A stretch of DNA of 64,000 nucleotides, from assembly GCA_019240635.1 (NCBI GenBank), contig JAFAYA010000103.1, forward strand, positions 10,021 to 74,020, read 5' to 3'. Below, one piece after another: positions 9,535-36,104 of the stretch (position 1 is the first letter of the stretch; each line of letters begins with the position of its first letter). The notes below the pieces were generated by a model. The model saw nothing but the letters and a program-made list of their open reading frames with translations. It did no database searches and was not told the origin of the DNA. This DNA is from Acidisphaera sp. (GTDB lineage Bacteria > Pseudomonadota > Alphaproteobacteria > Acetobacterales > Acetobacteraceae). Both the position numbers and the translations under genes were made by a program.

Positions 9535-10605
9535 TTATCCGCAGGGAGCGGCGCGGCTGATCGCGGCGCTCCCCGCCAGCTCCGCGCGCACGATCGCGGC
9601 CCCGTCGGCCAGCGCCCGCAGCTTGCCGAACGCGCGGTCGCGGGGCAGGTATTTCATGCCGCAGTCCGGCGCCGGGATCAGCCGCGCGGCATCGACATGT
9701 TCGAGGCCGCGGCGAATGCGCGCGGCGACCTCCTCGGCGCTCTCCACGCTCTCGCGCCCGAGGTCGAGCACCCCGAGCAGGATCGTCTTGGCCGACAGGT
9801 CGCGCAGCACGCCGAGGTCGAGGCCGGGCTGCGCCGCCTCGATGGAGATCTGTCCGGCGATGCAGTCTGCGAGCAGCGGCAGCACCGCGTAGGCGGCGGG
9901 CTTGTCGTGCACGATCGCGGCGTAGCCGAAGCAGACATGCACCACCGTCGGCCCGGGAATACCCGCCAGCGCGCGGTTCAGCGCGGCCAGCGCGTAGCGC
10001 CAGGCGGCGTCCGGCCGCTCCTCCATCCAGGGCTCGTCGAGCTGGATCACGTCGGCGCCGGCGGCCTTCAGCGCGCGCGCCTCCTCGTTCACCGCGGCGG
10101 CGTAGGCGAGCGCCGCCTCCGCCGCGTCGCCGTAGAACTCGTCGCACGCCTGCTGGGTCATCGTGAACGGGCCGGGCAGCGTGACCTTCACGGGACGCTT
10201 GGTGTTGCGGCGCAGGAAAGCGAGATCGCGCAGTTCGACCGGGCCGCGCCGGCGGATCGGGCCGACGATCCGGGGCACCTGGGTGCGCCGGCCGGTGCGG
10301 CCGACGACCTCCGCCGGGTTGTCCACATCGATGCCGTCGACCGACAGGGCGAAGCGGTTGGAGTAGCTCTCCCGGCGGATCTCGCCGTCGGTGATGATGT
10401 CGATCCCCGCACGCTCCATGTCGCGGATCGCGAGCAGGGTGGCGTCGTCCTGCGCAGCCTCGAGCAGCGCGGCCGGCACGCGCCAGATCTCGCTCGCGCG
10501 CACGCGCGGCACGGTGCGCGAGCGCAGCAGCGCGCGATCGACCAGCCAGTCCGGCTGCGGATAGCTGCCGACCACGGTCGTCGGCAGCAGTGCGGGGAGC
10601 TGCAT
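9535..10605 (-). CDS. Cobalamin-independent methionine synthase-like protein (short core-MetE / MetE C-terminal domain family Zn methyltransferase)
   Basis: 356 aa. VVGSYPQPDWL N-terminus, DGEIRRESY, VIQLDEP. Zn-ligand motifs H-x-C (HVCFG) and PDCGM are present. Confidence 0.85.
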   Translation of the reverse strand: MQLPALLPTTVVGSYPQPDWLVDRALLRSRTVPRVRASEIWRVPAALLEAAQDDATLLAIRDMERAGIDIITDGEIRRESYSNRFALSVDGIDVDNPAEVVGRTGRRTQVPRIVGPIRRRGPVELRDLAFLRRNTKRPVKVTLPGPFTMTQQACDEFYGDAAEAALAYAAAVNEEARALKAAGADVIQLDEPWMEERPDAAWRYALAALNRALAGIPGPTVVHVCFGYAAIVHDKPAAYAVLPLLADCIAGQISIEAAQPGLDLGVLRDLSAKTILLGVLDLGRESVESAEEVAARIRRGLEHVDAARLIPAPDCGMKYLPRDRAFGKLRALADGAAIVRAELAGSAAISRAAPCG

Positions 10606-10646
10606 CGGCAGCTGCCGGGGCGTTCGCCGGTTGCGGGCCCGCCGGA

Positions 10647-12425
10647 CTATCCCGCGACGGCCGCGGCGCGGCTGCGGGCGCGGTCCCGCCTGGCCTTGTC
10701 GCCGGCGGCGCGCGCCGCCTCCGTGGCGGTGAACATCTCCAGCCGGTCGAGATCGTCCTCGGCCACCGCTGCGAGTGCGGTGTCGGTGTAGGCGCGGCGC
10801 TCCGGGTCACGCTTGATCGCCCGGCGCACCGCGGCCATGCGCAGCACCATCCGGCCGATGCGCACGTGCTTCTCGACCAGGTCGGCGAGATAGCGCGGAT
10901 AGAACAGCAGCGCATTCTCCACCGGCAGACCGGGCCGGCGGTCGGTGCGCACCTTCCGGCGGAGATAGCCGCCTTCCAGCGGGTGAATTTTTTCGATCGT
11001 CACGCAGCCCCAGAACCACATCAGCAGGAACATCATTTTTCCGGGGCTGATGCCGGTGGCGGCCGCGCGGCGCATCACCCGCTCCATGTGCTCGGGCGTG
11101 TAGTAGGTCCGCCAGGCCAGCCGGTAGGCGTGCTCCCACTCGGCCTTCGACATCAGGGGATGCGCGGTGCAGACATGCTCGAGGTCGTACTTGTTCATGT
11201 CGGGGTCCATCGGCACACCCTGCGCCCAGAGCCGCTTGTGGTCCTCCGAGCCCGGCAGCGGCGTGAGGCAGAAGAACTCCAGCAGGTCGAGCGGCAGCTC
11301 GCGCTGGATGATGCGGATGTCCCGCACGATCGTCTCCGGCGTGTCGGCGGGAAAGCCGAGAATGTAGCCCGCGTAGGTGAAGCAGCCGACGCGCTTCCAC
11401 TCAAGCAGCATCCGGCGGTACTCGGAGATGCGGTTCTGCCGCTTCTTCGCCGCGAGCAGGCTGTCCGGGTTGATGCTCTCCAGGCCGAGGAACACCCGGG
11501 TCACGCCGGCGCGCGCCGCCTTCTCGATGAAATGCGGGATCTTGTGGCAAAGCGTGTCGACCTGGATCACGAAGCGGAAGAACAGCCCCTCCTGCTCGTG
11601 CATCGCGATGAGCCGGTCGAAGATCGGTTCCCAGTTGCGGTTGCGCGCCAGGTTGTCGTCGGTGATGAAAAAGTGGTCGATGCCCTGGGCGAGGTTGCGG
11701 CGAATGATCCCCTCGACGTCATCGGGCGTGCGGTAGCGGGATTTGCGGCCCTGCACGTTGATGATCGTGCAGAAGGAGCATTGGAACGGGCAGCCGCGGC
11801 CGGCGTCGAAGCTGGTCAGCCGGCCGCCCGTGCGCTCGACGCGGGCAGCCGGCAGGATCGGCGGCGGCGCGCCCTCCAGTCCCGGCAGGTCGTCCATGAA
11901 ATTGTAGAGCGGTGCCAATTGGCCGGCGAGCGCGTCGCGCAGCACCGCTTCCAGCCGCCCCTCGGCCTCACCGGCGAACAGCGTGATGCCGAGATCGAGC
12001 GCTGCCTGCAGATCCTCGGGCATCTCCGGCAGCATGGCCAGGCAGCCGGAGACGTGAAAGCCGCCGATCGCCACCGGCACGCCCTCGGCGCGCAGCCGGC
12101 GCGCGATGTCGAGCGCGCGGGGGAACTGGTTGGACTGCACCCCGACCAGGCCGACCAGCCCGGCGCCCGCCTGGCGGATCGCCCGGGCGATGCGCGCCGG
12201 CCGCACCCGCGTGTTGGTCTCGTCGACCGCGGTGATCTCGAGAGCGACGTCCTCGCCGAGTGCGCGCCGGTCGCGCACGTCCAATGCCAGGCCGTGCAGG
12301 GCCGCGAGCGTGTTCGAGGGAATCGCCGAGCGCAGCCACTGGATGACATAGCCGTCGTCGTCGTAGTGCGACGGCTTGATGAGGGTCAGCAGAAAACGGC
12401 GGCGGCCCGGAGTGGCTTCGGGCAT
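10647..12425 (-). CDS. B12-binding-domain radical SAM protein (class B rSAM, about 590 aa)
   Basis: CxxxCxxC cluster motif (GCPFQCSFCT). An N-terminal Rossmann-like B12-binding region (KPSHYDDDGYVIQW ... GVQSNQF ... VAIGGFHVSG). Long C-terminal extension. Confidence 0.85.
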   Translation of the reverse strand: MPEATPGRRRFLLTLIKPSHYDDDGYVIQWLRSAIPSNTLAALHGLALDVRDRRALGEDVALEITAVDETNTRVRPARIARAIRQAGAGLVGLVGVQSNQFPRALDIARRLRAEGVPVAIGGFHVSGCLAMLPEMPEDLQAALDLGITLFAGEAEGRLEAVLRDALAGQLAPLYNFMDDLPGLEGAPPPILPAARVERTGGRLTSFDAGRGCPFQCSFCTIINVQGRKSRYRTPDDVEGIIRRNLAQGIDHFFITDDNLARNRNWEPIFDRLIAMHEQEGLFFRFVIQVDTLCHKIPHFIEKAARAGVTRVFLGLESINPDSLLAAKKRQNRISEYRRMLLEWKRVGCFTYAGYILGFPADTPETIVRDIRIIQRELPLDLLEFFCLTPLPGSEDHKRLWAQGVPMDPDMNKYDLEHVCTAHPLMSKAEWEHAYRLAWRTYYTPEHMERVMRRAAATGISPGKMMFLLMWFWGCVTIEKIHPLEGGYLRRKVRTDRRPGLPVENALLFYPRYLADLVEKHVRIGRMVLRMAAVRRAIKRDPERRAYTDTALAAVAEDDLDRLEMFTATEAARAAGDKARRDRARSRAAAVAG

Positions 12426-14650: not shown

Positions 14651-15586
14651 TCACGCCTGCCGCAGCCAAACCTCCCCCACCGAATGGTCGGCGCGCTTGC
14701 GCAGCACCACGCGGGCGCGCTGGCGTGTGGGCAGGATGTTCTCGCGCAGGTTCACCAGGTTGATCGTGCGCCAGATGTTGCGCGCCGTCGCCCGTGCCTC
14801 CTCCTCCCGCAAATCCCGGAAGCGCCGGAAGAACGATGCCGGCGACTGGAACGCCGTGCGCTGCAGCAGCAGGAATCGCTCGACATACCAGGTCTCGATG
14901 TCCGCCTCGTCGGCGTCGATATAGACCGAGAAGTCGAAGAAGTCGGACGCGAGCACCGGGGTCGAGGCGGCCTGCAGCACGTTCAACCCTTCGAAGATCA
15001 GCACGTCCGGCTGCGCCACGACTTTTTGCTCGCCCGGCACGATGTCGTAGGTCAGGTGGGAATAGACCGGCGCCTGCACTTCCGGCGCGCCCGCCTTCAC
15101 GTCCGCCAGGAAGCGGATCATCCGCCGGAGATCATAGCTTTCCGGAAAACCCTTCCGCGCCATCAGCCCCCGCTCCTCCAGCACCCGATTGGAATGCAGG
15201 AAGCCGTCGGTCGTGACGAGCTCGACGCGCGGATGGTCCGGCCAGCGCGCCAGGATCGCGCGCAGCACGCGCGCGAACGTGCTCTTGCCCACGGCGACGC
15301 TGCCGGCGATGCCGATCACGTACGGCACGAGGCCGGACGGCAGGCCGAGAAAGGCGTCCTTCACGCGACCGAGGTTGCGCGCCGCCGAAACGTGCAGGTT
15401 GAGCAGGCGCGACAGCGGCAGATACGCCTCCGACACCTCGTCGAGCGAGACCGGCTCGTTGAGGCTGCGCAATTCGGCGAGATCGGCCTGCGAGAGGGTC
15501 AGCGGCGTGCTGGCGCGCAAGGTCGCCCACTCGCCGCGGCTGAAGATCATGTACGCGGCGAGATCGGTGACGCGGTGGTTCGTCAT
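14651..15586 (-). CDS. coaA: Type I pantothenate kinase
   Basis: P-loop [12 protein letters not shown], plus [14 protein letters not shown] and [10 protein letters not shown]. The 311-aa length matches CoaA. Confidence 0.92.
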
Positions 15587-15665
15587 TCGGGCGGGGCCTG
15601 GGCGGCGATGCGGCGAGGGTGCATCCTGGGGTGTCCGGCCGCGGCCAACAAGGTCCGGCACGCGA

Positions 15666-17216
15666 TTGCGGGAGACGACGCTGCCCGAGATCGTCCGCGA
15701 TATCGTCCCTTGGGCGTCCGACCTGCAATCGGTGCGCGCGGCGTTCGGCGAGCGACCCTGCATCCACGACGGCGAGCGCGGCCTCGACTTCGCGGGCATG
15801 ATTGGCCGGGCGGCGACGCTCGCGCATAGGTTGCGCGCCCGGGGCGTCGCGCCGGGGACGCCGGTCGCGACATCGCTGCCCAACGGCATTCCGGCGGTGT
15901 GGACCGCCGCCGCGCTGCGCCTCGCCGGAGCCGCGGAAGTTGCGCTGAACGCGGCGCTGGCGGGCGAGGAGCGGCGCTACTGTCTGGCGCTGTCCGGCGC
16001 CGGCCTGGTCCTGACCACCCGCGCGCAGGTCCCCGCTTTCGCTGCCCTCGGATGCGAGGCCATCGCCGTCGAAGACTTGCCGGACGCGCCCGGCGAGCTG
16101 GCCGGCCTGCCGCCGGTGCCGGGCGACGCTTTCGGGCGCATCAGCTTCACCTCCGGCACCACCGGCCGGCCGAAAGCCATCGTCCACACCCACGCGGCGC
16201 GCTGGATCGCCAACCTGCTGCAGCGGGCGAGCTGGTCGGTGATGCCCGGCCCGGGCAGCCGGCTGCTGCTGATGACGCCCTTCGTGCACGGCGCCGGCAT
16301 GCTGTTCCAGGCGTTTTGCGACCGCGGGGCCGAATGCGTGCTGCTCGACGGCGTGGACCCGCCGAAGCTGGAGGCGTTGCTGAGCAGCGGCGGCATCGAT
16401 TTCATCTTTGCGCCGCCGACCGTGCTGGCGAAGCTCGCCGCCGCCTTCCCGGACCGGCATTTTCCGGGCGTGCGCACGGTGTTCACCGGCACCGCACCGC
16501 TGGTCCCGGCACTCTACGCCAAGGCCCGCGCGCTGTTCGGCCCGGTGGTGCGGGTGACCTATGGGAAGTCCGAGATCGTGAACCCGATCACCGTGCTCTC
16601 CCCCGAACAGACCGAGGCCTGCTACGCCGAGGCCGCGCCGCACGAAGGCGTCTGCGTGGGTTTTCCCGCGACCGGCGTGGAAGTGGAAATCCGCGGCGAC
16701 ACCGGCGCGCCCTGCGGCCCCGAGGAAGTCGGCGAGGTGCATCTGCGCGCCCGCCATATGCTGCGCGGCCTGATCGATGCGTCCGGCTTTCGCCCGCTGC
16801 CCCCCGGCGCCTTCCACGACACCGGCGACCTCGGCCGCGTCGACGCGCAGGGTCGGTTGCATTTGGCCGGGCGCATGGCCGACGTCATCAAATCCGGCGG
16901 CTACAAGATCCACCCCGACGAGATCGAGCGTGCGCTGGCCGGCACCGCGCCCGCGGTTTCGGTGGTGGCGTTGCCCTCGGAATACTGGGGCGAGGTGATC
17001 GTCGCGGTGGCGGAGGGCGCCGATGCCGCATGGCCCGATCGGGCGCGCGCGGCGCTCGCCGGGCTGGCGCGCTACAAGCATCCCCGCGCCTTCATCGCCG
17101 TCGAGGAAATCGCCCGCAACGCGCAGGGCAAGGCGATGCGCCGTCTGGTGCGCGAGCGCCTGCTCGCGCGCTACCGGCTGATCGACGGTCCGCATCCCCT
17201 GCTGGAACGGCGCTGA
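15666..17216 (+). CDS. Adenylate-forming acyl-CoA synthetase / fatty-acyl-AMP ligase family enzyme
   Basis: AMP-binding motifs [29 protein letters not shown] and a C-terminal NAQGK. Start inferred as TTG 15666 (uncertain). Convergent with the PKS operon, with only 7 nt between stop codons. Confidence 0.8.
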
Positions 17217-17223
17217 TGCGATG

Positions 17224-18339
17224 CTATGGCGCCCGCGCGGACAGCCGGGTGGCCCTTGAGGCGAGCGCGAGGGCGCCGGGCCAGGCAGCGCCGAGGCGCA
17301 TCAGCAGGGCCTGGCCGGGCGTCCCCCGGCCGAGCCGATACAGCGCGGAAGCGGAGCGGATCGGCCCGCCGATGTCGCGCCGCATGTGGCGGTGGTACGC
17401 GGCTGCCGGCCGGCCCGCGAGATAAGTCGCCGCGGCCACCGCCGCACTGTGCAGCGCGATCGACATGCCGCTGCCGGTGAAGGAGGCAATGACGCCCATC
17501 TGGTCGCCCAGCCGGAACACGCCGGGGGCGTCCTGCGCCGAGGCTGCGTGCAGAAAGCCATACGGCACGCGGTAGATCGAGAGCGGGCGCGGATCGAGCG
17601 GGGTCGCGCCGTCCAGCCGGGCGCGCAGATGCGGCTCGGTGTCGAGCAGGTCGTTCAGCAAGCCGGACCAGCCGCCTCCCGCGCGCCGCAGCCGCCGCCG
17701 CTGCACGAGCAGGCAGAGATTGGCGCGCTCGCCCTCCACACGCTGCAGGCCGGCATAGCCGCCCGCGAGCAGCAACACCTCCACGTGTCCGGCGAGCGCC
17801 GATCGCTGGGAGTCGGCGAGACGAAGATGCAGCTTGAAGCCGACGAGGTCCTCGGGCGGCGAGGCGGGCACGCGCCGCAGGCCGCGCAGGTCGTGCTTGC
17901 CGGTGGCGAGGAACAGCGCAGCGGCCGGGATTTCGCCGAGCCCCTCGACGGCGAGCGTCACGGGATCGCCGCATCGCGCCAGTGTCACGGCGTGTCCACG
18001 CCGCACATCCGCGCCGGCCGCCGCGGCTTGCTGGCGGAGCGCCTCATCAAGGGTGCGGCGCGACAGCCCGTAGCCGGCGAAGGGCAGCGCCGCCTCGACG
18101 ATCGAGTCGCGGCGGACCAGCCGCACGCCGGTGATCCGGTGTGCCCCGAGGGCGGCGGGATCGACGCCCAGCCGCATCAGGTAGCGCTGCGCCTCGCGGC
18201 TGATGAACTCGCCGCAGATTTTTGGCGCGGGGGAAGCGTCGCGCTCCAGCACCAGCACGCGGCGGCCGGCGCGCGCCAGTAGACCGGCGGCAGCCGCGCC
18301 CGCAAGCCCACCGCCGGCGACGACGACCGGGGCCGTCAC
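17224..18339 (-). CDS. FAD-dependent oxidoreductase / aromatic hydroxylase-like flavoprotein (SrsC-like position)
   Basis: N-terminal dinucleotide fold VVVAGGGLAGAAAAGLLARAGRRVLVLE, then CGEFIS. GTG 18337-18339 overlaps the methyltransferase stop (GTGA). Confidence 0.75.
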   Translation of the reverse strand: MTAPVVVAGGGLAGAAAAGLLARAGRRVLVLERDASPAPKICGEFISREAQRYLMRLGVDPAALGAHRITGVRLVRRDSIVEAALPFAGYGLSRRTLDEALRQQAAAAGADVRRGHAVTLARCGDPVTLAVEGLGEIPAAALFLATGKHDLRGLRRVPASPPEDLVGFKLHLRLADSQRSALAGHVEVLLLAGGYAGLQRVEGERANLCLLVQRRRLRRAGGGWSGLLNDLLDTEPHLRARLDGATPLDPRPLSIYRVPYGFLHAASAQDAPGVFRLGDQMGVIASFTGSGMSIALHSAAVAAATYLAGRPAAAYHRHMRRDIGGPIRSASALYRLGRGTPGQALLMRLGAAWPGALALASRATRLSARAP

Positions 18340-19034
18340 TTCAGCCGCCCAACGCAGAGCCGGAACGGGACGTGCCAGCGCGTCTCGGCCGCGACACCCG
18401 CTTGCTGTAGCAGGCGTGTCCAGTCCGGCTTGCGGAAGCTGCGCGCGATGGAGACCGTGCCGTCCAGCCGCACGATCCGGTGCCAGCCAGCGGCGCGCGC
18501 CAGCACGCGAAAGCCCCAGTAGGGCAGGGCGTGCCGGTGCAGGTCGGCGATGAACCAGCCGCGCGCGGCGTGGCGCTCGAGCCAGCGAAGGAAGTGCAGC
18601 AATTCGGGGTCCGTGAGGTGGTGGGCGAACTGCGAGCTCACGACGAAATCGGGCGAGGGGTCGGGCGCATAGTCGAACACGTTGCCGGTGCGATACGCGA
18701 TCGCCGCCCCGGGCGGCGTGGCGGCCGCGGCGGCGACCGCGCTGCGCGGGTTCAGGTCGATCCCCTCGAGGCTTGCTTGCAGGCCGCGCCGGTCGGCCCA
18801 GCGGCGGACGGCGCGCAGCAGGTCGCCCTCGCCGCAGCCGACGTCGAGGACGCAGAGGTGGGCACCGCGCGGCAGCGCGCGCGTCGCCCGGGCCAGCCAT
18901 CGCAGGGTCGGACGGTGCGTCAGGGTGACGCGGTTGACCGCCGCCAGGTCGTGCAGGCAGCGGGCGTACTCGTCGGCGGTGACGGTTTCGCCGTCCATCA
19001 GCTCGGCTTGCGTGCTGCGGCGGGAGAGGTCCAC
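18336..19034 (-). CDS. Class I SAM-dependent methyltransferase (SrsB-like position)
   Basis: SAM motif I VLDVGCGEGDL. 232 aa. The GTG start lies 5 nt after the PKS stop. Confidence 0.8.
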   Translation of the reverse strand: MDLSRRSTQAELMDGETVTADEYARCLHDLAAVNRVTLTHRPTLRWLARATRALPRGAHLCVLDVGCGEGDLLRAVRRWADRRGLQASLEGIDLNPRSAVAAAAATPPGAAIAYRTGNVFDYAPDPSPDFVVSSQFAHHLTDPELLHFLRWLERHAARGWFIADLHRHALPYWGFRVLARAAGWHRIVRLDGTVSIARSFRKPDWTRLLQQAGVAAETRWHVPFRLCVGRLK

Positions 19035-19039
19035 GGCGC

Positions 19040-20131
19040 TCAGCCGGCCAGCGCGAAGCGGAAGGTTTCGGCGACCATCCCCGGCCCGAACGCCAAGGCC
19101 AGGCCGTGCGCGCCCGGCGCGTTGCCGGAGCGGCGCGCTTCGAGCATGCGCCGCAGCACGAACATCAGCGTCACCGAGGACATGTTGCCGAAATCGTGCA
19201 GCACGGCGCGCGAGTACGCCAGCGCCTCAGGCGGCAAGGCCAGGCCGATCTCGACGGCGTCGAGCACGGTTCGCCCGCCGGCGTGCACCGCCCAGAAATC
19301 GATCGCCTGCGTGCCCTCGCCGCGCAGAATGCCGCCGGGATCGGGCTGCGCCAGCTCCGCGCGCAGCGCCTGGGCGATGCGGCCCGGCACCTTCCCGGAG
19401 AGGTGCATGCGAAATCCCTGCTCGCCGATCTGCCAGGTGATGAGGTCCGCGCTGTCGGGGATCACCGCGGTGCGGAAATCACCGAGGGCGATGCCGTGCG
19501 GCTCGGCGGTGACCAGCGCCGCCGCGCAGCCGTCGCCGAACAGCAGGAACGACAATACGGTTTCGAGATCGGCGGTCTCCTGCAGGTGCAGCGAGCAGAG
19601 TTCCAGGTTCACCACGAGCACCCGCGACGCCGGGTCCGACCGCACGGCTTGGCGCGCCGCCCGCAGCGCGGGGACCGCCGCCGAGCAGCCCATGAACCCG
19701 ATCAGGGTGCGCTCCACATCCGGCCTGAGCCCGAGGCAGGCGGCAAGCTGGAGGTCCAACCCCGGCGCGGTGAACCCGGTGCAGGACGCGACGATCAGAT
19801 GCGTGATCCGCGCGCGCTCCCCGCCGAGGAGCGCCGCCGCGGCGCGCCGCGCCAGCGCCAGCGCGTCGCGCTCATAGGCCGCCATGCGCGCGCCGGTGCC
19901 CGGAAAATCACGGCGCCGGTAGAACCCGTCGGCATCCACTTCGCCCGCCGCGATGTTCCCGGGGCGCAGGCCGGAATAGCGGTGCGCGATGCCGGAGCGC
20001 TCGGCCATGCGATCGAACACGCCGCGCGTCCGCTCGTCCGCCAGCAGTGTCCGCGCAAAAGCGATGAACGGCGCGTGGATGTCGTACTCCGGTACCGCCG
20101 TCGCGATCCCGTTGATATGCGCGACGGTCAA
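19040..20131 (-). CDS. Type III polyketide synthase (chalcone/stilbene synthase superfamily)
   Basis: 363 aa. Cys-His-Asn triad contexts are present (IVASCTGFTAPG, FWAVHAGGRTVLD, DFGNMSSVT). The TTG start at 20129-20131 is nested in the KS stop codon. Confidence 0.9.
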   Translation of the reverse strand: MTVAHINGIATAVPEYDIHAPFIAFARTLLADERTRGVFDRMAERSGIAHRYSGLRPGNIAAGEVDADGFYRRRDFPGTGARMAAYERDALALARRAAAALLGGERARITHLIVASCTGFTAPGLDLQLAACLGLRPDVERTLIGFMGCSAAVPALRAARQAVRSDPASRVLVVNLELCSLHLQETADLETVLSFLLFGDGCAAALVTAEPHGIALGDFRTAVIPDSADLITWQIGEQGFRMHLSGKVPGRIAQALRAELAQPDPGGILRGEGTQAIDFWAVHAGGRTVLDAVEIGLALPPEALAYSRAVLHDFGNMSSVTLMFVLRRMLEARRSGNAPGAHGLALAFGPGMVAETFRFALAG

Positions 20132-21342
20132 TCCGCCCTCCGCAGCACCAGCACGGCATTCAGCCCGCCGAACGCGAAGGAGTTGGACATCGCCACCTCG
20201 ATCGGCGCCGGGCGCGCGCGGTTCGGCACGCAGTCGAGCGCGCAGTCCGGGTCAGGCTCGCGGAAGCCGATGGTCGGCGGCAGCACGCCCTCGCGCAGCG
20301 CGAGCGCGGTCACGATCAGCTCGAGCGCACCGCCGGCATTCAGGCAGTGGCCGAGCATCGACTTGGTGGACGAGACCGGCAGCCGCGGCAGATGGCGGCC
20401 GAAGACGTCGGCGAGGATCGTGGCTTCCGTGCGGTCGTTGAGGCGCGTGCCGGTGCCGTGCGCGTTGACGTAGTCGATCGCCTCAGGCGGCAGCCCGGCG
20501 TCGGTAAGCGCCTCGCGCACGGCGCGCGCCGCACCGGCCGCGTCGGGCGCCGTGAGGTCGGCGGCATCCGCGCTCATGCCGAAGCCGATAAGCTCGGCAT
20601 GGATCGGCGCACCGCGGGCGCGGGCGCGTCGCCAGTCTTCCAGCACCAGGATGCCAGCCCCTTCACCGATCACCAGGCCGGTCCGGTCCTTCGAGAACGG
20701 CCGGCAGAAATCCGGGCTGAGCACGCGCAGCGCGTCCCAGGCCCGCATGAAGCCGACGCAGATCGAGGCGTCGCTGCCGCCCGTGACGGCTACGTCCAGC
20801 ATGCCTGCCCGGATCATCTGGAACGCGAGACCGATCGCGTGGCTCGCCGAGGCGCAGGCGGAGGCGGCGGCGAAGCAGGGCCCGCGAATGCCGAACTCGG
20901 TCGCGACGTGGCTCGCCGGACCGCTCGGCATGACACGGGGGACCGTCAGGGGGTGCAGCCGGCCCGCGCCCTCGCCGTAGAGCGCCTGGTAGGACGCGTC
21001 GAGCGTCTGCTGGCCGATCGCCGCGCCGAGCACCACGCCGGCGCGGCTGGCCGGCACGTCGTGCAGGCTGACGCCGTGCATCGCCTCGCGAGCGGCGACC
21101 AACGCGAGCTGCGCCGTGCGGTCGAGCATCGGCAGACGTCGGCGATCGAAATGCGCTTCCGGCGCAAAACCCTGGAGTTCGGCGGCGGTGCGCACGGTGA
21201 GCCGGTCCGTCGGGATGCCGGCGATCGGCCGGATGCCGCACTCGCCGCGGACCAGCGCCGCCCAGAGCGCGGGGACATCCTGCCCAAGTGCCGCGACGGC
21301 TCCGAGCCCGGTGACGGCGACCCGGCGCGCCGGTGGGCTCAA
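20128..21342 (-). CDS. Beta-ketoacyl-ACP synthase, KAS I/II (FabF/FabB-like, Cys-His-His)
   Basis: AASACASASHAIG (active Cys), VNAHGTGT, GHCLNAGG. 404 aa. The start overlaps the ACP stop. Confidence 0.9.
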   Translation of the reverse strand: MSPPARRVAVTGLGAVAALGQDVPALWAALVRGECGIRPIAGIPTDRLTVRTAAELQGFAPEAHFDRRRLPMLDRTAQLALVAAREAMHGVSLHDVPASRAGVVLGAAIGQQTLDASYQALYGEGAGRLHPLTVPRVMPSGPASHVATEFGIRGPCFAAASACASASHAIGLAFQMIRAGMLDVAVTGGSDASICVGFMRAWDALRVLSPDFCRPFSKDRTGLVIGEGAGILVLEDWRRARARGAPIHAELIGFGMSADAADLTAPDAAGAARAVREALTDAGLPPEAIDYVNAHGTGTRLNDRTEATILADVFGRHLPRLPVSSTKSMLGHCLNAGGALELIVTALALREGVLPPTIGFREPDPDCALDCVPNRARPAPIEVAMSNSFAFGGLNAVLVLRRAD

Positions 21343-21641
21343 CCGGCGCTGCCCGGAGGTGCCGCGGCGCGCCGGTCGAGCACCGCGAGGACGTGCGCCA
21401 GCAGATCGCCCACCGTGCCGAACTCGGCGCCGGCCCGCTCCGCGATCACCGGGATTTCGATGTCGAATTCCGTCTCCAGCCGGAACACCGCCTGGGTCAT
21501 GTCGAGAGAGGCGATGCCGAGCTCCTCGATGCTCGCCTCCGGCTGCAGGAGGCTACGCTCGATGCCGGTTTCCTCGGCCACGATGGCGAGGATCCGCTCG
21601 ACGCGGGGGTCGGAGGTGGTCGAGCTGCGTGCCGCATCCAT
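21339..21641 (-). CDS. Stand-alone acyl carrier protein
   Basis: 100 aa. Phosphopantetheine-site context LGIASLDMTQAV (a variant of the DSL motif). First gene of the overlapping operon. Confidence 0.8.
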   Translation of the reverse strand: MDAARSSTTSDPRVERILAIVAEETGIERSLLQPEASIEELGIASLDMTQAVFRLETEFDIEIPVIAERAGAEFGTVGDLLAHVLAVLDRRAAAPPGSAG

Positions 21642-21735
21642 CAGCCGTTTCCATTAGCCTGTTGCATGTGTAGCGCGGCCTGGCTTGGCAAGATGCGGGG
21701 GCGCTCAGACGTGATCGCGTCCGCGGCCGGCGGCC

Positions 21736-23643
21736 TCACGCCTGCTGATGGAAGTGCGCGTAAACCCGCCGCGCCGTCTCGCGGTTGATGCCGGGAACCG
21801 CCTCGAGGTCGGTGAGCCCCGCCTGCTTCACCCCACGCGCCGAGCCGAAATGGTTGAGCAGGGCGCGCTTTCGTTTCGCGCCGACGCCCGGCACCTCGTC
21901 CAGTTCGCTGCTCACCAGCGACCTTGCGCGGCCGGCGCGATGGGTGGTGATGGCGAAGCGGTGCGCCTCGTCGCGCAGCCGCTGCAAGTAGTAGAGCACG
22001 GGGTCACGCGTCGGCAGCTGGAAGGGCGGGCGGGCGTCCATGTGGAACCACTCGCGCCCGGCGTCGCGATCGGGGCCCTTGGCGATCGCCACCAGCGGCA
22101 CGTCCTGCACGCCGAGATCGGCCAGCACGCCGCGCGCCGCGGAAAGCTGGCCGGCGCCGCCGTCGATCAGCACGAGGTCGGGCCAGTGCGGCGTCGCCTC
22201 GGCGGGCGAGGCGTCCGGGTTCTCCGCGCGCTCGCGCAGCGCGCGGCCGAAGCGGCGCTCCAGCACCTCGCGCATCATCGCGAAATCGTCGCCGGGGGTG
22301 ACCGGGCCGCGGATGATGTATTTGCGGTAGGCATTGCGGGCGAATCCCTCGGCGCCGGCGACGATCATCACGCCATACGGGTTGGTGCCCATGATGTGGC
22401 TGTTGTCGTAGACCTCGATGCGCTCGGGCCGCGCCGGCAGGGCGAACAGCGCCGCCACCGCCTCCAGCAGTTTCGCCTGGCCCGCGGATTCCGCGAGCTT
22501 GCGCTCCATCGCCTCGCGCGCGTTGGTCTCGGCGTGCTGCACCACGGCGCGCTTCTCGCCGCGCAGGGGGACGGCGATTTCTACGCGACGTCCGGCCTTC
22601 AGGCTGAGCGCCTCCGCCACCAGGTCCTGCTCCGGCAGGGTGTGGCTGGCCAGCAGCAGGGGTGGGGGCTTCTTGTCGTCGTAAAACTGGGCGATGAAGG
22701 CGGCCAGCACCTCCGGCGTCTCCTCGGTGCGGGTATGCATCGGGAAGTAGGCGCGGTTGCCGTTGTTGCGCCCGCCGCGCACGAAGAACACCTGCACGCA
22801 GGTCTGCCCCGCGCCCTGCCAGGCCGCGATCACGTCGGCGTCGGTAAGGCTCGCCGGGTTGATCACGCCGCTGCCCTGCACGTGGGTCAGGCCCCGGATG
22901 CGGTCGCGGATGGCGGCGGCGCGCTCGAACTCCAGCGCGCCGGCCGCCTGCTCCATCTCCGCCGCCAAGTCCCGCTGGATCGCCGCCGCCTTGCCCGACA
23001 GGAACGCCTTCGCCTGCGCCACCAGCCTGGCGTACTCCGCCCCTTCGATCCGGCCGACGCAGGGCGCGGAGCAGCGACGGATCTGATGCAGCAGGCAGGG
23101 GCGGGAGCGGTTGGCGAACACGTTGTCGGTGCAGGAGCGCAGCAGGAAGACCCGCTGCATCGCCGTCACGGTCTGGTTTACCGCCCAGGCCGAGGCGAAC
23201 GGTCCCCAGTAGCTGCCGCGGCGCGCATGCGCGCCGCGATGCTTGACGATCTGCGGGAATGCGTGGTCCTCGGTGAGCATCAGCCAGGGATAGGACTTGT
23301 CGTCGCGCAGCACGATGTTGAAGCGCGGCTTCAGCCGCTTGATCAGGTTGGCCTCGAGCAGCAGCGCCTCGGCCTCGGTGTGCGTGGTGACGATCTCCAG
23401 TGCCACGGTCTCCGCGACCATGCGCCGCAGCCGCTCGGGCAGCCGGGCCGGCTGGGTGTAGGCCGCGACCCGCTTCTTCAGGCTGCGCGCCTTGCCGACG
23501 TAGAGCGCCTCGCCGCGTGCATCGAGCATGCGATAGACACCGGATGCCGCGGGCATGGTCGCCAGCGCCGCCTCGATCGCCGCGGCGCCGGTGAGGGGAC
23601 TGGAAACCGGTGCCTCGGTTTTAGGCTGTGGGTCCTCGCTCAT
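21736..23643 (-). CDS. uvrC: Excinuclease ABC subunit C
   Basis: GIY-YIG N-terminus ([25 protein letters not shown]), a UvrBC domain and a C-terminal (HhH)2. Confidence 0.95.
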
Positions 23644-23940
23644 CGTACAGCCAGGGATTAAGGCCGCCGGGCAACCGGCTCAAGGGACGGCCGGGACCGA
23701 TGCAGGGGCGGATTCACCCGCTCCCGGTTCTCCACCGAAGCTGTGGATATGTTTGTGGGCGGGGATGCGGGCAGAACCCGGAGGCCGAGGGATTCCCTGG
23801 CTGTCACGGCTTTGCCCAAAATCGGTGCAGCTGGCTAAGTCTTTGATTTCACGCGACTTCACGATCGCGAAGCCGTGAAGCTCTGAGGAGCGGCCGCCAT
23901 CCGATTGTAATGCTGGGCGGGCGTCCGGCCCGTGGATGAA

Positions 23941-24351
23941 TCACGGGCGACGCCGCTCAACCTCCACGCCGGCCGCCGCCGCGTCGGGGAACACGTCAAG
24001 CTTTTCCACGCGCACGCGGGCCAGAACGACCCGGGAATCCGCCAGACACGCTCCCGCAATCCGCTCGGCCAGGGTCTCAACCAGAAGGACGTGCCCCTCA
24101 CTTACAATTCCCTTTACGGTTTTGGCAACCCCTTCGTAATCAACCACACGCGAAAGTCTGTCGCGGCCGACGGGTTGGCGTGAGAGCGGGCGGGCGCCGT
24201 CATCCTCCACGCCGAGATCGATGTTGATGCGGATACGCTGCGTCTGGCCGTGCTCGTGGGCGTGCACGCCGATCGAGGCCGGCAGCACGAGGTCCCGGAT
24301 GAAGACGTGGCGCAGTCCCCGCGCGGCGTCGGCGATGCGCGTGCTGTCCAT
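23941..24351 (-). CDS. folB: Dihydroneopterin aldolase
   Basis: 136 aa. IFIRDLVL.ASIGVHAHE is a typical FolB N-terminus. Confidence 0.85.
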   Translation of the reverse strand: MDSTRIADAARGLRHVFIRDLVLPASIGVHAHEHGQTQRIRINIDLGVEDDGARPLSRQPVGRDRLSRVVDYEGVAKTVKGIVSEGHVLLVETLAERIAGACLADSRVVLARVRVEKLDVFPDAAAAGVEVERRRP

Positions 24352-29371: not shown

Positions 29372-29695
29372 TCAGAACGGCAGCTTCATGCCGCCTGGCA
29401 ACGCCAGCCCGCCGGTCACCTTCTGCATCTCCTCCGCCGCAGTCGCCTCCACCTTGCGCCTGGCGTCGGCATGCGCCGCGACCACCAGGTCCTCCAGCAT
29501 CTCCATCTCCGCAGGGTCGGCGAGCTTCGGGTCGATACGCACGCGCTTCATGTCGCCCTTGCCGTTCAGCGTCACGCTGACCATGCCGGCGCCGGCCTGG
29601 CCCTCCACCTCCAGGCCCTCCAGCTTGGCCTGCATCTCCTGCATCTTGCCCTGCATCTCCTGCGCCTGCTTCATCAGGCCGGCGAGATTCTTCAT
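29372..29695 (-). CDS. ybaB: Nucleoid-associated protein YbaB/EbfC
   Basis: 107 aa. [13 protein letters not shown] coiled N-terminus and VTLNGKGD.K...IDP. Confidence 0.9.
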
Positions 29696-31554
29696 CAGTC
29701 CTGCTCCGCATTCCGGTTGAGGTCGTCGGCCTCGGCGTCGGCCGGGGGGAAATCCGGCTCGCCGGCGAGCGCGATGTCGCCGGCGGCGACCGAAAGCCCG
29801 TAGGCGTCCGTCGTGCTGTCGTGCACCGCGTCGATCCGCGCACCCGGGAACGCATCGAGAATGGCGCGGACCAGCGGATGGTCGGCGGCGGCGCTGCGCC
29901 GCGCGGCATCGGCCGCCTGGCCCTGCTCCGCGAGCGTCGGCTCGCCGGGCGCCGCCGACAGCGCGATGGTCCAGCGCGTGCCGGTCGCCTCCAGCAGCAG
30001 CGCCGCGAGCCGCGCCGCCAGGTTGCGCGGCGCCTCCGGCTGCGGCCGCAGTTCGATCACCCCCGGCGCGAACCGGACGAGATGCACGGAATGCACGAGA
30101 TGGGCGTGCAGGGTCGGCTCGCGCCGCTCGGCGACCAGCGCCACCACGTCGCGAAAACCGGCGAGGCGCGGCACCGGCCTGGAAAGCACTGGCTCGGAAG
30201 CCACCGGCTCGGCAGGCATCGGGGCGGTTAGCGGCGCCGCCACCGGCGGGCCGTTGGCGACCGCACGAACGCCGCCGCCCGGTGACGGCGGGATCACCGC
30301 CGGCCGCACCGGCGCCGCCGTGGGATCCGCGATCTGGCGGACGAGATCGCCGGGCGTCGGCAGGTCGGCGACGTGGCAGAGCCGTATCAGCACCATGTCG
30401 GCCGCGGCGCGGCGGTCCGGCGCGGTCTCCACCTCGCCGATGCCCTTCAGCAGCATCTGCCAGGCGCGGCCGAGCACCGGGACCGAGAGCCGGTCGGCCA
30501 GCGCCGCGCCGCGGGTGCGCTCGGCCTCCGGCAGGTCCGGGCTCTCGCGCAGCGAAGGGATGGCCTTCAGCCGGCTCAGCGTATGGGTCAGCTCCAGCAG
30601 GTCCTGCAGCAGCGTGCCGGGATCCGCGCCGAATTCGTGCGCCCGGTCGCCGATCGCCAACGCCTCCGCCGGGCGGCCCGCCATCAGCGCCTCCAGCAGG
30701 TCGAACACCGCGCCGCGGTCGGCCAGGCCGAGCATGCGCAGCACCGAGTCCGCCGTGATCGCCGCGTCCGGCGCCTGCGCGATAGCCTGGTCCAGCAGCG
30801 ACAGGCCGTCGCGCACCGACCCGTCGGCCGCGCGCGCGATCAGAACGAGCGCCTCCGGCTCGGCCCGCACGCCCTCCGCCTGCGCGATGCCGGAAAAATG
30901 CGCCGACAGCTCGGCCGCTCCCACCCGCCGCAGGTCGAAGCGCTGGCAGCGCGACAGCACGGTCACCGGCACTTTTCGCAGCTCGGTCGTCGCGAACACG
31001 AATTTTACGTGCGGCGGCGGCTCCTCCAGCGTTTTCAGCAGCGCGTTGAAGGCGTTGCGGGAGAGCATATGGACCTCGTCCACCACGAACACTTTCGTGC
31101 GCGCCTGGAGCGGGCGGAAGCGCGTCGCCTCGATGATCTCGCGGACGTCGTCCACGCCGGTGCGCGAGGCGGCGTCCATCTCCACCACATCCGGGTGGCG
31201 GTCGGCGAGGATGGCGACGCAATCCGGGCACACGCCGCAGGGATCGGCGGTCGGGCCTCCCTTGCCATCGGGCCCGGTGCAGTTCAGCGCGCGGGCAATG
31301 ATGCGGGCCGTCGTGGTCTTCCCCACCCCGCGCACGCCGGTGAGCATGAAGGCGTGCGCCACCCGATCCCGCGCAAACGCGTTGCGCAGGATGCGCACCA
31401 TCGTCTCCTGGCCGATGAGCTGGTCGAACCGGGTCGGCCGGTATTTGCGCGCCAGCACCCGATAGGCCGCGGTCGGCGTCGCCGCGGGTGCGTCGCCGAA
31501 CAGGCCGGGGCCGTCGGGCGGAGGCGGCAGATCGTGCTCGGCGAGGTCGGACAT
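29695..31554 (-). CDS. dnaX: DNA polymerase III subunits gamma/tau
   Basis: AAA+ motifs [13 protein letters not shown] and VDEVHMLS, plus the Zn module CxxC (CGVCPDC). 619 aa. Confidence 0.95.
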
Positions 31555-31610
31555 GCGCGGCGGGACGAGCAGCCGCGGCGGCGGCCCCCTCTCTCTGAGC
31601 CCGGTTGCAC

Positions 31611-31710
31611 GGTGGGAGGCCGGACGAACGACCCGGGCGGAAACTCGTTGCGGCTGCTTCCTTCCGGACCTGACCGGGTTGGCGAGGCGCCCGTCCGCCG
31701 CCGACCTCCC
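31611..31710 (-). ncRNA. ffs: Signal recognition particle RNA (4.5S type)
   Basis: The reverse complement contains the invariant domain IV sequence GGUCAGGUCCGGAAGGAAGCAGC (31653-31675). The ends pair (GGGAGGUCGG / CCGGCCUCCC). It occupies the canonical position upstream of dnaX. Confidence 0.85.
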
Positions 31711-31716
31711 GGCCGA

Positions 31717-31745
31717 AGTATCGTGCCGCGACCATCTGGCCGCAA
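31717..31745 (-). promoter_or_regulatory. Candidate sigma70-type promoter of ffs (-35 TTGCGG, 17-nt spacer, -10 GATACT)
   Basis: The -10 hexamer ends 6 nt before the predicted 5' G of ffs. The hexamers were read from the reverse complement. Confidence 0.35.
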
Positions 31746-31780
31746 GGTTGCTGCCCAGGTTGCTGCCCAGGTTGCTGCCC
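31745..31780. repeat. Perfect tandem repeat, 3 x 12 nt (aggttgctgccc)
   Basis: Three identical units at 31745-56, 31757-68 and 31769-80. They lie between the divergent ffs and nudC genes. Confidence 0.95.
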
Positions 31781-31790
31781 TGGGCCCTGC

Positions 31791-33759: not shown

Positions 33760-33845
33760 GCGGTCGTGGCGGAATGGTAGACGCGCAAGCTTGAGGTGCT
33801 TGTGGGGGAAACCCCGTGGAAGTTCGAGTCTTCTCGACCGCACCA
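33760..33845 (+). tRNA. tRNA-Leu (anticodon GAG), CCA encoded
   Basis: Folds by eye. Acceptor GCGGTCG/CGACCGC, anticodon stem CAAGC/GCTTG with loop TTGAGGT, a long variable arm (GGGGGAAACCCC), a TTCGAGT T-loop and a terminal ACCA. Confidence 0.95.
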
Positions 33846-36083: not shown

Positions 36084-36104
36084 CCTTCAGCTCACCCGGG
36101 CCCA

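Follow-up and report, generated by a model that had tools for sequence, protein, structure and literature searches.

An operon pairing a NodE-like ketosynthase and acyl carrier protein with a type III polyketide synthase in Acidisphaera: a candidate pathway to phenolic lipids

The stretch of Acidisphaera DNA analysed here (the window, 64,000 nt) contains genes for an acyl carrier protein (ACP), a β-ketoacyl-ACP synthase (KS), a polyketide synthase of type III (PKS), a methyltransferase (MT), and a flavoprotein, with a ligase gene converging on them, raising the question of which of these genes act together and what they make. The original prediction was of a six-gene pathway to a phenolic lipid in which the ligase loads the ACP. 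The comparisons described below indicate that the conserved unit is five genes, ACP, KS, type III PKS, class I MT, and flavoprotein, and not six, and that its product is probably a methylated, oxidised phenolic lipid whose fatty chain is assembled on a carrier protein encoded by the operon itself.

Organization and conservation of the operon

All six predicted open reading frames are present in the ORF calls for the window, with domains assigned using Pfam and NCBIfam profiles (Table 1), and re-reading of the sequence bore out the original prediction as to gene junctions, initiation and termination codons, and catalytic motifs.

Table 1. Features of the locus (window coordinates)
Feature	Coordinates	Strand	Domains or remarks
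Acyl carrier protein (ACP), stand-alone, 100 aa, operon gene 1	21339..21641	-	PF00550
NodE-like elongating β-ketoacyl-ACP synthase (KS), 404 aa	20128..21342	-	Pfam ketoacyl-synt N and C domains
Type III polyketide synthase (PKS), 363 aa	19040..20131	-	Chal_sti_synt N and C domains
Class I SAM-dependent methyltransferase (MT), 232 aa	18336..19034	-	Methyltransf_23/25/11
FAD-dependent oxidoreductase (flavoprotein), 371 aa from GTG at 18339	17224..18339	-	FAD_binding_3 N-terminus
Spacer, 94 nt, uvrC stop to ACP start	21642..21735	-	Presumed own promoter and ribosome-binding site
Convergent acyl-CoA synthetase-like ligase, judged outside the operon	15666..17216	+	AMP-binding domain

The ACP stop codon TGA and the KS start codon TTG share the TTGA at 21339-21342, and the KS stop codon (TGA, 20128-20130) overlaps the PKS start (TTG, 20129-20131), which has a GGAGG 7 nt upstream. 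Five nucleotides (GCGCC) separate the PKS stop codon from the GTG of the MT gene (first base 19034), and the GTGA at 18336-18339 is common to the MT stop and the flavoprotein GTG. The median gaps in related loci, which are extrapolated values, are +2 nt for ACP-KS, -4 for KS-PKS (54 loci), +5 for PKS-MT, and -4 for MT-flavoprotein; judged from these, the tight packing of the five genes is not chance, and the junctions show a real operon with translational coupling. Neither a sigma-70 consensus nor a terminator was found in the stretch before the ACP gene, so that read-through from uvrC is possible.

A gene-neighbourhood comparison of the PKS, as the original prediction had proposed, found the KS and ACP to be co-conserved with it. 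The KS gene precedes the PKS gene, and the order of the unit is colinear, in 54 of the 77 informative related loci, with ACP orthologues (41-70% identity) directly before the KS in 45; the MT gene is present, after the PKS, in 75/80 loci and the flavoprotein gene in 59/80, and every further gene family is limited to about 10 loci or fewer. Each of the three KS orthologues examined by reverse look-up was part of this operon, the surroundings differing in all three cases, and L081, the closest relative, carries these five genes next to sdhCDAB. Gene content and order thus show co-inheritance of the five genes in the Acetobacteraceae, other Rhodospirillales, and Burkholderiaceae; the Sphingomonadaceae have a similar arrangement, Novosphingobium plasmid pLA3 carries DUF2147-ACP-KS-PKS-flavoprotein, and the operon is present in hundreds of proteobacterial species. 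Because sister clusters exist with PKS-MT-flavoprotein only, the ACP-KS pair appears to be an optional starter-unit module, and as the KS from Novosphingobium shows just 44% identity, recruitment of the pair may have occurred more than once. No KR, DH, ER, or AT gene was found in any cluster among the related loci, L081, and the three KS look-up loci.

The flanking genes are core genes as first described, uvrC having its complete set of domains and coaA encoding a pantothenate kinase of type I (437.8 bits on TIGR00554, whose cutoff is 235), but a core-genome setting does not extend to the related clusters, which occupy other contexts, some on plasmids. Each context examined (L081 and the three KS look-up loci) is different, and none of the related loci compared has the cluster near either uvrC or coaA. 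Literature searches agree that the six-gene combination is not a characterised one; it is nonetheless common and has in part been noted by genome mining, and the product is not known for any member of the proteobacterial family (PMC8776678).

The convergent ligase

Seven nucleotides separate the ligase stop codon (TGA, 17214-17216) from that of the flavoprotein gene (CTA on the plus strand, 17224-17226), and no terminator-like or sigma-70-like site was found at this junction. This adjacency, together with an intact adenylation core that includes SGTTG and a C-terminal GK motif, and with the ftp precedent as cited in PMC10896814, is what commends a model in which, in an Ftp-like manner, a fatty acid is activated by the ligase and transferred to the cluster ACP, for extension by the KS and cyclisation by the PKS. 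We nonetheless regard this model as very improbable. No ligase orthologue lies beside any of 81 PKS loci, and a scan to a distance of 10 kb from the cluster in 80 species loci yielded none, with only five matches at 27-29% identity; the ligase is likewise absent beside the cluster in L081 and L164-L166, and in the nearest relatives a DUF2147 gene holds its position. None of the 73 loci containing ligase orthologues (44-66% identity) has a PKS, KS, ACP, MT, or flavoprotein gene, and their recurrent neighbours encode MmgE/PrpD (28), CoA-transferase III (21), and acyl-CoA dehydrogenase (18), with TctC and DctM genes also present, an overall setting of carboxylic-acid catabolism and transport.

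The best solved relatives of the ligase are FadD13, MenE, and malonyl-CoA synthetase, and no fatty acyl-AMP ligase (FAAL) was found among its PDB matches. It aligns end to end with FadD13 (query 41-500 to 45-512), a span that leaves no room for the FAAL insertion, and the extra segment of ~20 residues that the original prediction had suggested looking for is absent relative to FadD13. The ligase therefore resembles acyl-CoA synthetases such as FadD13, not FAALs. Membership of the ligase in the pathway thus falls away, and on the comparative evidence it is judged not to be part of the operon and to play no part in it.

The operon enzymes and a proposed pathway

The phosphopantetheine serine of the ACP is Ser45 (LGIASLD), where the protein lines up with NodF and with E. 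coli AcpP at its DSL serine. It matches PF00550 (E = 7.9e-09) and falls below every NCBIfam AcpP cutoff, the best model scoring 41.5 bits against 71. The KS has a complete Cys-His-His condensing triad (Cys163, His295, and His332, with Lys327 also in place), so that the predicted catalytic residues of both proteins are intact. It scores 422 bits on the fabF equivalog, under the cutoff of 493.75, and passes that of the broad PRK07314 'KAS II' subfamily (407.5 bits against 387); it shares 49% identity with S. fredii NodE, and 51% and 54% with the KSs of other ACP+KS cassettes (in Paracoccus and Xanthomonas), compared with 40% and 43% with the FabF proteins of E. coli and B. subtilis. Its orthologues are labelled 'nodulation protein E' in IMG, and its best plasmid matches lie in nodF-nodE beside nodABC, in ACP-KS beside an LpxD-like acyltransferase, and in ACP-KS beside a GNAT gene. 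Taken together, these similarities show the KS as a catalytically intact member of a NodE-like group in the FabF family, a group that travels as ACP+KS cassettes beside an acyl-using enzyme.

The PKS, which is 100% identical to a protein of an Acidisphaera MAG, retains the predicted catalytic contexts of Cys117 (ASCTGF), His283 (VHAGG), and Asn316 (FGNMSS), all invariant in 84/84 family members. In the alignment with its best solved relative, M. tuberculosis PKS18, Trp233 (kept in 83/84 members) corresponds to Leu266, a position equated with ArsB Trp281 and ArsC Gly284 (PMC7064976, PMC6274091, PMC9927152). The enzyme is thus predicted to be of the resorcinol type, with Trp233 at the site that steers ArsB towards aldol (resorcinol) cyclisation. 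In the 84-member alignment, no column distinguishes KS-adjacent PKSs from the rest, and the PKS therefore shows no specific adaptation to a private ACP. Its canonical basic ACP/CoA-docking residue is displaced by one position (HAGGR-T, not HPGGP-K/R), and both points count against the pathway favoured below.

The MT matches PRK06202 (E = 5e-39), and MT-flavoprotein fusions also occur (P0175 and P0221); the MT may act by either O- or C-methylation, which its sequence cannot distinguish. The flavoprotein is a divergent geranylgeranyl-reductase-superfamily protein with a class A flavoprotein fold. Its top NCBIfam matches, TIGR02032 of that superfamily (81.9 bits) and then QhpG, are below their cutoffs, and its AF2 model (pLDDT 90.6) matches phenol/pyrrole halogenases and aromatic hydroxylases in Foldseek with TM scores of 0.7-0.8. 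All 22 of its plasmid matches lie beside a type III PKS, and in 11 loci a canonical FAD_binding_3 hydroxylase replaces it at the same position, no locus having both. It is probably a ring hydroxylase. The geranylgeranyl-reductase score and the halogenases as best structural matches count against the chemistry in the pathway that we favour.

We think it more likely than not that the operon makes a membrane phenolic lipid, with a NodFE-like cassette supplying an acyl-ACP starter to a resorcinol-type PKS, and to this extent the original prediction of a phenolic-lipid type III PKS operon that brings a dedicated ACP and an elongating KS is supported. The cell's own FabD would malonylate the private ACP, and the KS would elongate or tailor a fatty acyl chain on it with borrowed housekeeping FabG, FabZ, and FabI, as NodFE does. 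The acyl-ACP would then pass directly to the type III PKS, for which ArsA to ArsB/C, HidC, and CylI are precedents (PMC6274091, PMC8086630). Addition of three malonyl (or methylmalonyl) units and cyclisation would yield an alkylresorcinol or alkylresorcylic acid, whose ring would be methylated by the class I MT and hydroxylated by the flavoprotein to an alkyl-methoxy-hydroquinone or -benzoquinone, as in srsABC and pkqABC.

Alternatively, the KS-ACP pair may make no reduced fatty starter, with either one or a few non-reductive condensations passing a β-ketoacyl- or poly-β-keto-ACP to the PKS, or the ACP delivering malonyl extenders, so that the product is not a plain alkylresorcinol. The lack of KR, DH, and ER genes from the cluster and the full condensing triad of the KS are compatible with this, and NodE itself yields incompletely reduced, polyunsaturated chains. 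However, the sister clusters retain this PKS, MT, and flavoprotein in the absence of the KS-ACP pair, which suggests that the ring chemistry is the same there with an ordinary acyl starter; diagnostic PKS substitutions are absent; and other cassettes of the KS group adjoin acyltransferases that use fatty acyl chains, making this alternative unlikely. Least probable of all is that the KS and ACP are ordinary fatty-acid-synthesis or other lipid-pathway genes that neighbour PKS-MT-flavoprotein by chance. Although the KS clears the 'KAS II' cutoff and about 30% of family loci do without KS and ACP, the sub-cutoff fabF and AcpP scores, the low identity to E. coli FabF, the absence nearby of fabH, fabD, fabG, and acpP, the conserved 4-nt overlap with the PKS gene, and co-location with the PKS gene in four families and in all three reverse look-ups all argue for a dedicated pair, as originally proposed, rather than for housekeeping FabF and AcpP.

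The step catalysed by the flavoprotein offers a further alternative, in which it is a reductase (geranylgeranyl-reductase/MenJ-like, saturating a side-chain or ring double bond) or a halogenase, and the product a reduced or halogenated methylated alkylresorcinol and not a quinone; we give this a small but appreciable chance, slightly above that of a non-reduced starter. Besides the TIGR02032 match, it is favoured by the annotation of some orthologues as 'menaquinone-9 beta-reductase' in IMG, by the top Foldseek matches (the halogenases PltM, Bmp2, FasV, and PltA), and by an invariant K40-I-C42-G-E motif in the family, which we take to resemble the KPCGG motif of geranylgeranyl reductases. HidB of the hierridin pathway is also described as acting reductively (PMC8086630). 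Nevertheless, the WxWxIP halogenase motif is absent from both the sequence and the family consensus, the aromatic hydroxylases 3-hydroxybenzoate 6-hydroxylase and PqsL fit the model nearly as closely as the halogenases do, and QhpG is a hydroxylase of the same superfamily. The mutually exclusive substitute in the 11 loci is moreover a canonical PF01494 aromatic hydroxylase (E = 1.7e-67), in keeping with the ring hydroxylation that we prefer.

Relationship to known systems

The alkylresorcinol-to-alkylquinone operons srsABC of Streptomyces griseus and pkqABC of Mycobacterium smegmatis have the same PKS-MT-flavoprotein order in one operon (PMC9927152, PMC10896814), a resorcinol-type PKS with Trp at the ArsB-281 position, and the cyclisation, methylation, and hydroxylation expected here. 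The originally proposed match to srsABC thus holds for gene order and probable chemistry but not for the enzyme families, as the operon has a class I Rossmann-type MT whereas SrsB orthologues fall within the isoprenylcysteine carboxyl methyltransferase family (PMC6669644), and the flavoprotein is the divergent one described above. The actinobacterial PKSs compared are only about 31-34% identical to that of the window, and the three genes that make up each operon as described include neither an ACP nor a KS. A soluble MT and an FAD oxidoreductase are also found in the three-gene phenolic-lipid modules hidABC (Cyanobium), the planctomycete MT-oxidoreductase-PKS operons, and a Deinococcus radiodurans PKS-MT-oxidoreductase trio, all without a dedicated ACP or KS; for HidC, an acyl-ACP starter has been proposed (PMC8086630, PMC10896814). 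The hid and planctomycete operons differ in gene order, and the D. radiodurans trio has an MT 33% and a PKS 38% identical to those of the window, with no BLAST similarity detectable between its oxidoreductase and the flavoprotein.

The rhizobial NodF/NodE pair and similar ACP+KS cassettes likewise place a FabF-family KS after a private ACP, lack reductive enzymes of their own, and adjoin an acyl-consuming enzyme, but the consumer here is a type III PKS, not the NodA N-acyltransferase, and there is no nodulation context. In arsABCD of Azotobacter vinelandii, too, type III PKSs that make alkylresorcinols receive ACP-bound long chains straight from a dedicated fatty-acid-making system (PMC6274091), although ArsA and ArsD form a type I FAS, unlike the discrete type II-style KS and ACP here, and there are two PKSs in the ars locus; PKS identity to ArsC of about 29% has been reported for enzymes from Acetobacteraceae (PMC8776678). 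In Myxococcus xanthus, the ftp locus combines FAAL, ACP, and type III PKS, the chain being activated by the FAAL, whereas the operon described here has a KS instead and no co-conserved ligase. RpsA of Rhodospirillum centenum, the only characterised Rhodospirillales type III PKS found in the literature, converts C6-C20 acyl starters to alkyl-dimethyl pyrones and resorcylic acids (PMC6274091).

Organization and conservation of the five-gene cluster

The ACP, KS, type III PKS, methyltransferase and flavoprotein genes are arranged in that order on the minus strand of the window, which has a G+C content of ~71%, and direct reading of the sequence agrees base for base with the layout and junctions of the original prediction. 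The ACP stop and KS start overlap in TTGA (21339-21342), the KS stop TGA is nested with the TTG start of the PKS gene (20128-20131) which GGAGG precedes by 7 nt, a spacer of 5 nt lies before the methyltransferase GTG, and the methyltransferase stop and flavoprotein start share GTGA. The flavoprotein stop codon is separated by 7 nt from that of a convergent AMP-binding ligase gene. The catalytic residues, also predicted to be intact, are all present: C163/H295/H332 in the KS, C117/H283/N316 in the PKS, and the Ser within GIASLD of the ACP. An Acidisphaera sp. MAG (Acetobacteraceae) encodes a protein with 100% identity to the PKS. A promoter and terminator scan of window positions 15000-24000 found nothing relevant.

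Features of the cluster and its flanks, with tblastn matches to the window proteins in 80 loci encoding related PKSs
Feature	Coordinates	Strand	Assignment	Loci with a match
ACP	21339-21641	minus	100 aa; Pfam/NCBIfam domain	45/80
KS	20128-21342	minus	discrete 404-aa enzyme; Pfam/NCBIfam domains	54/80
Type III PKS	19040-20131	minus	Pfam/NCBIfam domains	
Methyltransferase	18336-19034	minus	class I SAM-methyltransferase Pfam families	75/80
Flavoprotein	17224-18339	minus	Pfam/NCBIfam domains	59/80
AMP-binding ligase	end at 17216	plus	Pfam/NCBIfam domain	5/80 (27-29% identity; not adjacent orthologues)
coaA (flank)			TIGR00554, 437.8 bits	

PKS relatives were collected by scanning one genome of each GTDB species with a pattern, which found them in 378 species, and the best 80 loci (PKS identity 61-76%) were searched by tblastn with the six window proteins. 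Matches to the methyltransferase, flavoprotein, KS and ACP are invariably colinear with the PKS gene in these 80 loci, and the KS is found in 54 of the 77 that have enough upstream sequence. When all ORFs of the 80 loci were clustered, no other gene family was common to more than about ten of them, and the conserved unit is five genes. The median extrapolated junction gaps across the related loci are small (+2, -4, +5 and -4 nt in operon order), and the tight coupling is therefore itself conserved. A reverse look-up of three KS orthologues on other long contigs placed all three in ACP-KS-PKS-methyltransferase-flavoprotein operons whose genes overlap by 4 nt; the genomic surroundings differ among the three. 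One locus (L009, 11160-14518) has an otherwise standard operon with three ORFs between the PKS and methyltransferase genes, encoding an unannotated 172-aa product, an ADP-ribosyltransferase-domain protein and an ADP-ribosylglycohydrolase.

The cluster had been placed in the core genome rather than in an island, and its flanking genes are indeed coaA and uvrC; however, neither gene lies near a related cluster in any of 81 loci. The cluster therefore travels as a cassette, and its location between core genes is peculiar to the lineage of the window. In the closest relative (L081, PKS 83% identical) the five cluster genes are followed by a second methyltransferase gene and a DUF2147 gene, beside sdhCDAB. 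The cluster lies a few kb downstream of these genes for succinate:quinone oxidoreductase (L081 1919-5385); this single case would be of interest should the product be a quinone, but may be a coincidence. Plasmid pLA3 of the cultured Novosphingobium pentaromativorans US6-1 carries DUF2147-ACP-KS-PKS-flavoprotein, with the DUF2147 gene ahead of the ACP gene and the methyltransferase gene divergently transcribed.

The ACP-KS cassette, the ligase and proposed starter supply

The original prediction gave the PKS its own starter-unit machinery, in a six-gene pathway with the ligase loading the ACP. This is right in spirit for the KS and ACP, which are private to the cluster and co-conserved with the PKS, and wrong for the ligase. 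No ligase orthologue lies beside a cluster in any related locus, L081 and the three reverse look-ups included, and homologues of the PKS, KS, ACP, methyltransferase, flavoprotein or coaA are found in none of 73 loci (0/73) with ligase orthologues of 44-66% identity recovered by a metagenome scan. In other genomes the ligase thus has unrelated neighbours, most recurrently MmgE/PrpD (28 loci), family III CoA-transferase (21) and acyl-CoA dehydrogenase (18), together with TctC and DctM transporter components, a setting of carboxylic-acid catabolism. Among solved structures the ligase is most closely related to FadD13 (an acyl-CoA synthetase), MenE and malonyl-CoA synthetase, and its PDB matches at E <= 1e-20 include no FAALs; its residues 41-500 align with 45-512 of FadD13, so that there is no space for the FAAL insertion for which inspection had been proposed. 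It is expected to be a CoA ligase for a short or dicarboxylic acid.

The close convergence of the ligase and flavoprotein genes is no evidence of a common function. A DUF2147 gene lies 3' of the flavoprotein gene in the nearest relatives of the window (L001 7646-8014, L006 5035-5397, L081 13792-14262 and others) and is apparently an accessory gene in this cluster family. It is missing from the window, where the ligase abuts instead at 17217-17223, suggesting that the 7-nt junction is a rearrangement boundary and not a functional coupling.

The KS scores 422.1 bits on the fabF equivalog TIGR03150, below the cutoff of 493.75; the ACP reaches 41.5 bits on its best model, against a cutoff of 71, and fails every AcpP model, and a search of the window with E. 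coli AcpP gave no match at E <= 1e-8. The pair is flanked by uvrC and the PKS gene, not by a fab cluster. The housekeeping assignment to FabF and AcpP is therefore rejected, and the predicted distinctness of the pair is upheld by these scores and by its co-conservation with the PKS. A housekeeping acpP-fabF pair, sought for use in a phylogeny, was found in none of 160 loci, and pairwise identities of the KS were used instead; they are 40% to E. coli FabF and 43% to B. subtilis FabF (themselves 54% identical), 49% to Sinorhizobium fredii NodE, and 51% and 54% to the KSs of ACP+KS cassettes from Paracoccus and Xanthomonas sacchari, and by this measure the KS appears nearer to NodE and the cassette enzymes than to housekeeping FabF.

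The best KS-matching plasmid records are all two-gene ACP+KS cassettes adjoining an acyl-using enzyme, namely nodF-nodE by nodABC, one by an LpxD-like N-acyltransferase and one by a GNAT, and KS orthologues carry the IMG label 'nodulation protein E'. In rhizobia, NodF and NodE act with the housekeeping FabD, FabG, FabZ and FabI to provide a special acyl chain for NodA. The cassette of the window resembles this system in having a private ACP gene directly coupled to a following gene for a FabF-family KS with Cys-His-His, and in its want of dedicated AT, KR, DH and ER genes, none of which was found in the window operon or among the conserved cluster neighbours; the host FAS would presumably be used here. 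Given this analogy and the missing genes, we infer most simply that the cassette would tailor a fatty acyl chain on its private ACP and hand it to the type III PKS encoded immediately downstream. Acyl-ACP is used directly by other type III PKSs, as in transfer from ArsA to ArsB/C and by HidC and CylI (PMC6274091, PMC8086630).

No column of the PKS alignment separates clusters with a neighbouring KS from those without one, the criterion being conservation of 85% or more in one set together with 25% or less in the other, and clusters without KS and ACP are scattered over the PKS tree. We therefore interpret the ACP-KS cassette as a starter module that is optional and has repeatedly been lost; it has possibly also been gained more than once, because the Novosphingobium KS is only 44% identical. 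No KS-PKS or ACP-KS fusion protein occurs among the top 120 KS homologues. Residues 283-288 of the PKS read HAGGR(T/S) after the catalytic His throughout the family, so that the basic residue comes one position before its counterpart in HPGGP(K/R), the sequence of PKS18 and a Streptomyces enzyme; a site near it has been discussed as an ACP/CoA-docking residue (PMC7064976).

The type III PKS and its probable tailoring enzymes

The best solved relative of the PKS is PKS18 of M. tuberculosis, a long-chain alkylpyrone synthase (E = 2.3e-43). Trp233 of the PKS aligns with PKS18 Leu266, a position occupied by Trp281 in the resorcinol-forming ArsB and by Gly284 in the pyrone-forming ArsC (PMC7064976, PMC6274091, PMC9927152). 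Trp is found there in 83/84 PKS family members, and from this resorcinol-directing residue the product is predicted to be an alkylresorcinol or alkylresorcylic acid.

The methyltransferase matches only class I SAM-methyltransferase families in Pfam (Methyltransf_23/25/11/12), with no match to the ICMT family, and is 33% identical to that of a PKS-methyltransferase-oxidoreductase trio in Deinococcus radiodurans. The flavoprotein belongs to the geranylgeranyl-reductase/class A flavoprotein superfamily, in which it is divergent, and all of its matches in the plasmid collection (22/22) lie beside a type III PKS gene. Fusions of methyltransferase and flavoprotein (589 and 595 aa) and of flavoprotein and DUF2147 (514 aa) occur among the homologues (P0175, P0221, P0186, P0222), and offer Rosetta-stone-type support for the three probably functioning jointly.

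The AlphaFold model of the flavoprotein (pLDDT 90.6) matches the phenol/pyrrole halogenases PltM, Bmp2, FasV and PltA as well as aromatic hydroxylases in Foldseek (TM 0.7-0.8), and the GxGxxG motif is present; a flavin-dependent halogenase, which these matches raised, was set aside because the WxWxIP motif is missing, with no WxW in the protein or in a 30-sequence family consensus. In 11 Lichenicoccus-type loci (L013, L018, L024, L025, L028, L031, L040, L043, L056, L057, L066) a canonical FAD_binding_3 hydroxylase (E = 1.7e-67, 523 aa) occupies the operon position of the flavoprotein, and no locus has both. We lean towards ring hydroxylation as the most likely role, with reduction or another reaction also possible. 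Eight of the 11 loci (not L031, L043 or L066) contain a dienelactone-hydrolase gene, just upstream of the ACP gene where the sequence covers that region, and in L013 a SNF2-helicase gene lies between the methyltransferase and hydroxylase genes.

Relationship to known systems and other features of the window

Modules of type III PKS, methyltransferase and flavoprotein make alkylresorcinols and polyketide quinones, which Azotobacter, Streptomyces and mycobacteria use as lipids of the cyst or envelope or as alternative carriers of electrons. Dedicated chains are known to be fed to type III PKSs by a type I FAS (Ars), by a FAAL and ACP (Ftp), or by a FAAL, ACP and type I PKS (Cyl). The cluster differs from Ars in having a discrete KS and ACP and no multidomain type I FAS (ArsA/ArsD), and from Ftp in that no FAAL is co-conserved with the PKS. 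It shares with srsABC/pkqABC a type III PKS that has both the Cys-His-Asn triad and Trp at the ArsB Trp281 position, and a methyltransferase gene directly downstream; the flavoprotein gene, which overlaps the methyltransferase stop, may correspond to srsC. However, SrsB orthologues belong to the isoprenylcysteine carboxyl methyltransferase (ICMT) family (PMC6669644), whereas the methyltransferase here is of class I. The match to srsABC claimed originally therefore holds for organization and probable chemistry, but is not orthology throughout. In three actinobacterial plasmid-record loci (L155, L162, L163) the type III PKS gene's neighbours differ, with no methyltransferase or flavoprotein homologue.

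The combination had also been considered uncharacterized. The full-text literature searched, whose coverage is incomplete, yielded no account of an operon that joins ACP, KS and type III PKS, so that one may have been described elsewhere; but the PKS-methyltransferase-flavoprotein logic is known from srsABC, pkqABC, hidABC and planctomycete operons (PMC9927152, PMC8086630, PMC10896814), and genome mining of the Acetobacteraceae noted the PKS, methyltransferase and FAD trio, its product stated to be unknown, with ACP and KS unmentioned (PMC8776678). The finding is thus a phenolic-lipid cluster of a known kind in a five-gene version that is common but uncharacterized, in a proteobacterial branch that is large by the pattern scan and for which no product has been reported. 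Tools of the antiSMASH type already mark these loci as type III PKS clusters.

A NodFE-like KS and ACP pair would be a further route to feed a type III PKS, besides Ars and Ftp/Cyl, and the two-gene module might be portable for altering phenolic-lipid side chains. A wider reading, tentative and on balance rather doubtful as a whole, is that NodFE-type cassettes translationally coupled to type III PKSs are a widespread hybrid route in hundreds of alpha- and betaproteobacterial species, with cultured carriers in Novosphingobium (N. pentaromativorans US6-1), Lichenicoccus (L. roseus KEBCLARHB70R) and Burkholderia (sp. L27); that the starter which the type II KS would build on the private ACP is unusual (very long, unsaturated or beta-keto) and passes directly to the PKS; and that the role of the resulting alkyl-methoxy-quinones would be primary, such as that of an auxiliary quinone in respiration or of a lipid in the envelope. 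Polyketide quinones have such a role in mycobacteria. The main reading of the five-gene cluster is a clear biosynthetic hypothesis that can be tested in cultured organisms, but it will not surprise specialists.

Elsewhere in the window, a tRNA-Leu(GAG) gene (33760-33845) is followed by a low-GC stretch (0.55 at 34001-36000, against ~0.70 elsewhere). Here two GmrSD_N/DUF262-like ORFs lie side by side (34135-34743; 34740-36083), perhaps a single gene interrupted by a frameshift, along with a PIN-domain ORF (36475-37236); the region 33760-37236 resembles a small island linked to the tRNA gene and carrying genes of defence or toxin type. The long ORF assigned to dnaX (29695-32112) contains a bacterial SRP RNA of the small type (31612-31709, minus strand, 57.2 bits), and the true dnaX start must therefore be downstream of the maximal ORF start. 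At 9535-12425 on the minus strand, a MetE-like (Meth_synt_2/URO-D) gene, taken as its maximal ORF, runs ~160 nt into the upstream gene for a B12-binding radical SAM protein; the two genes possibly constitute an unusual module for methyl transfer.
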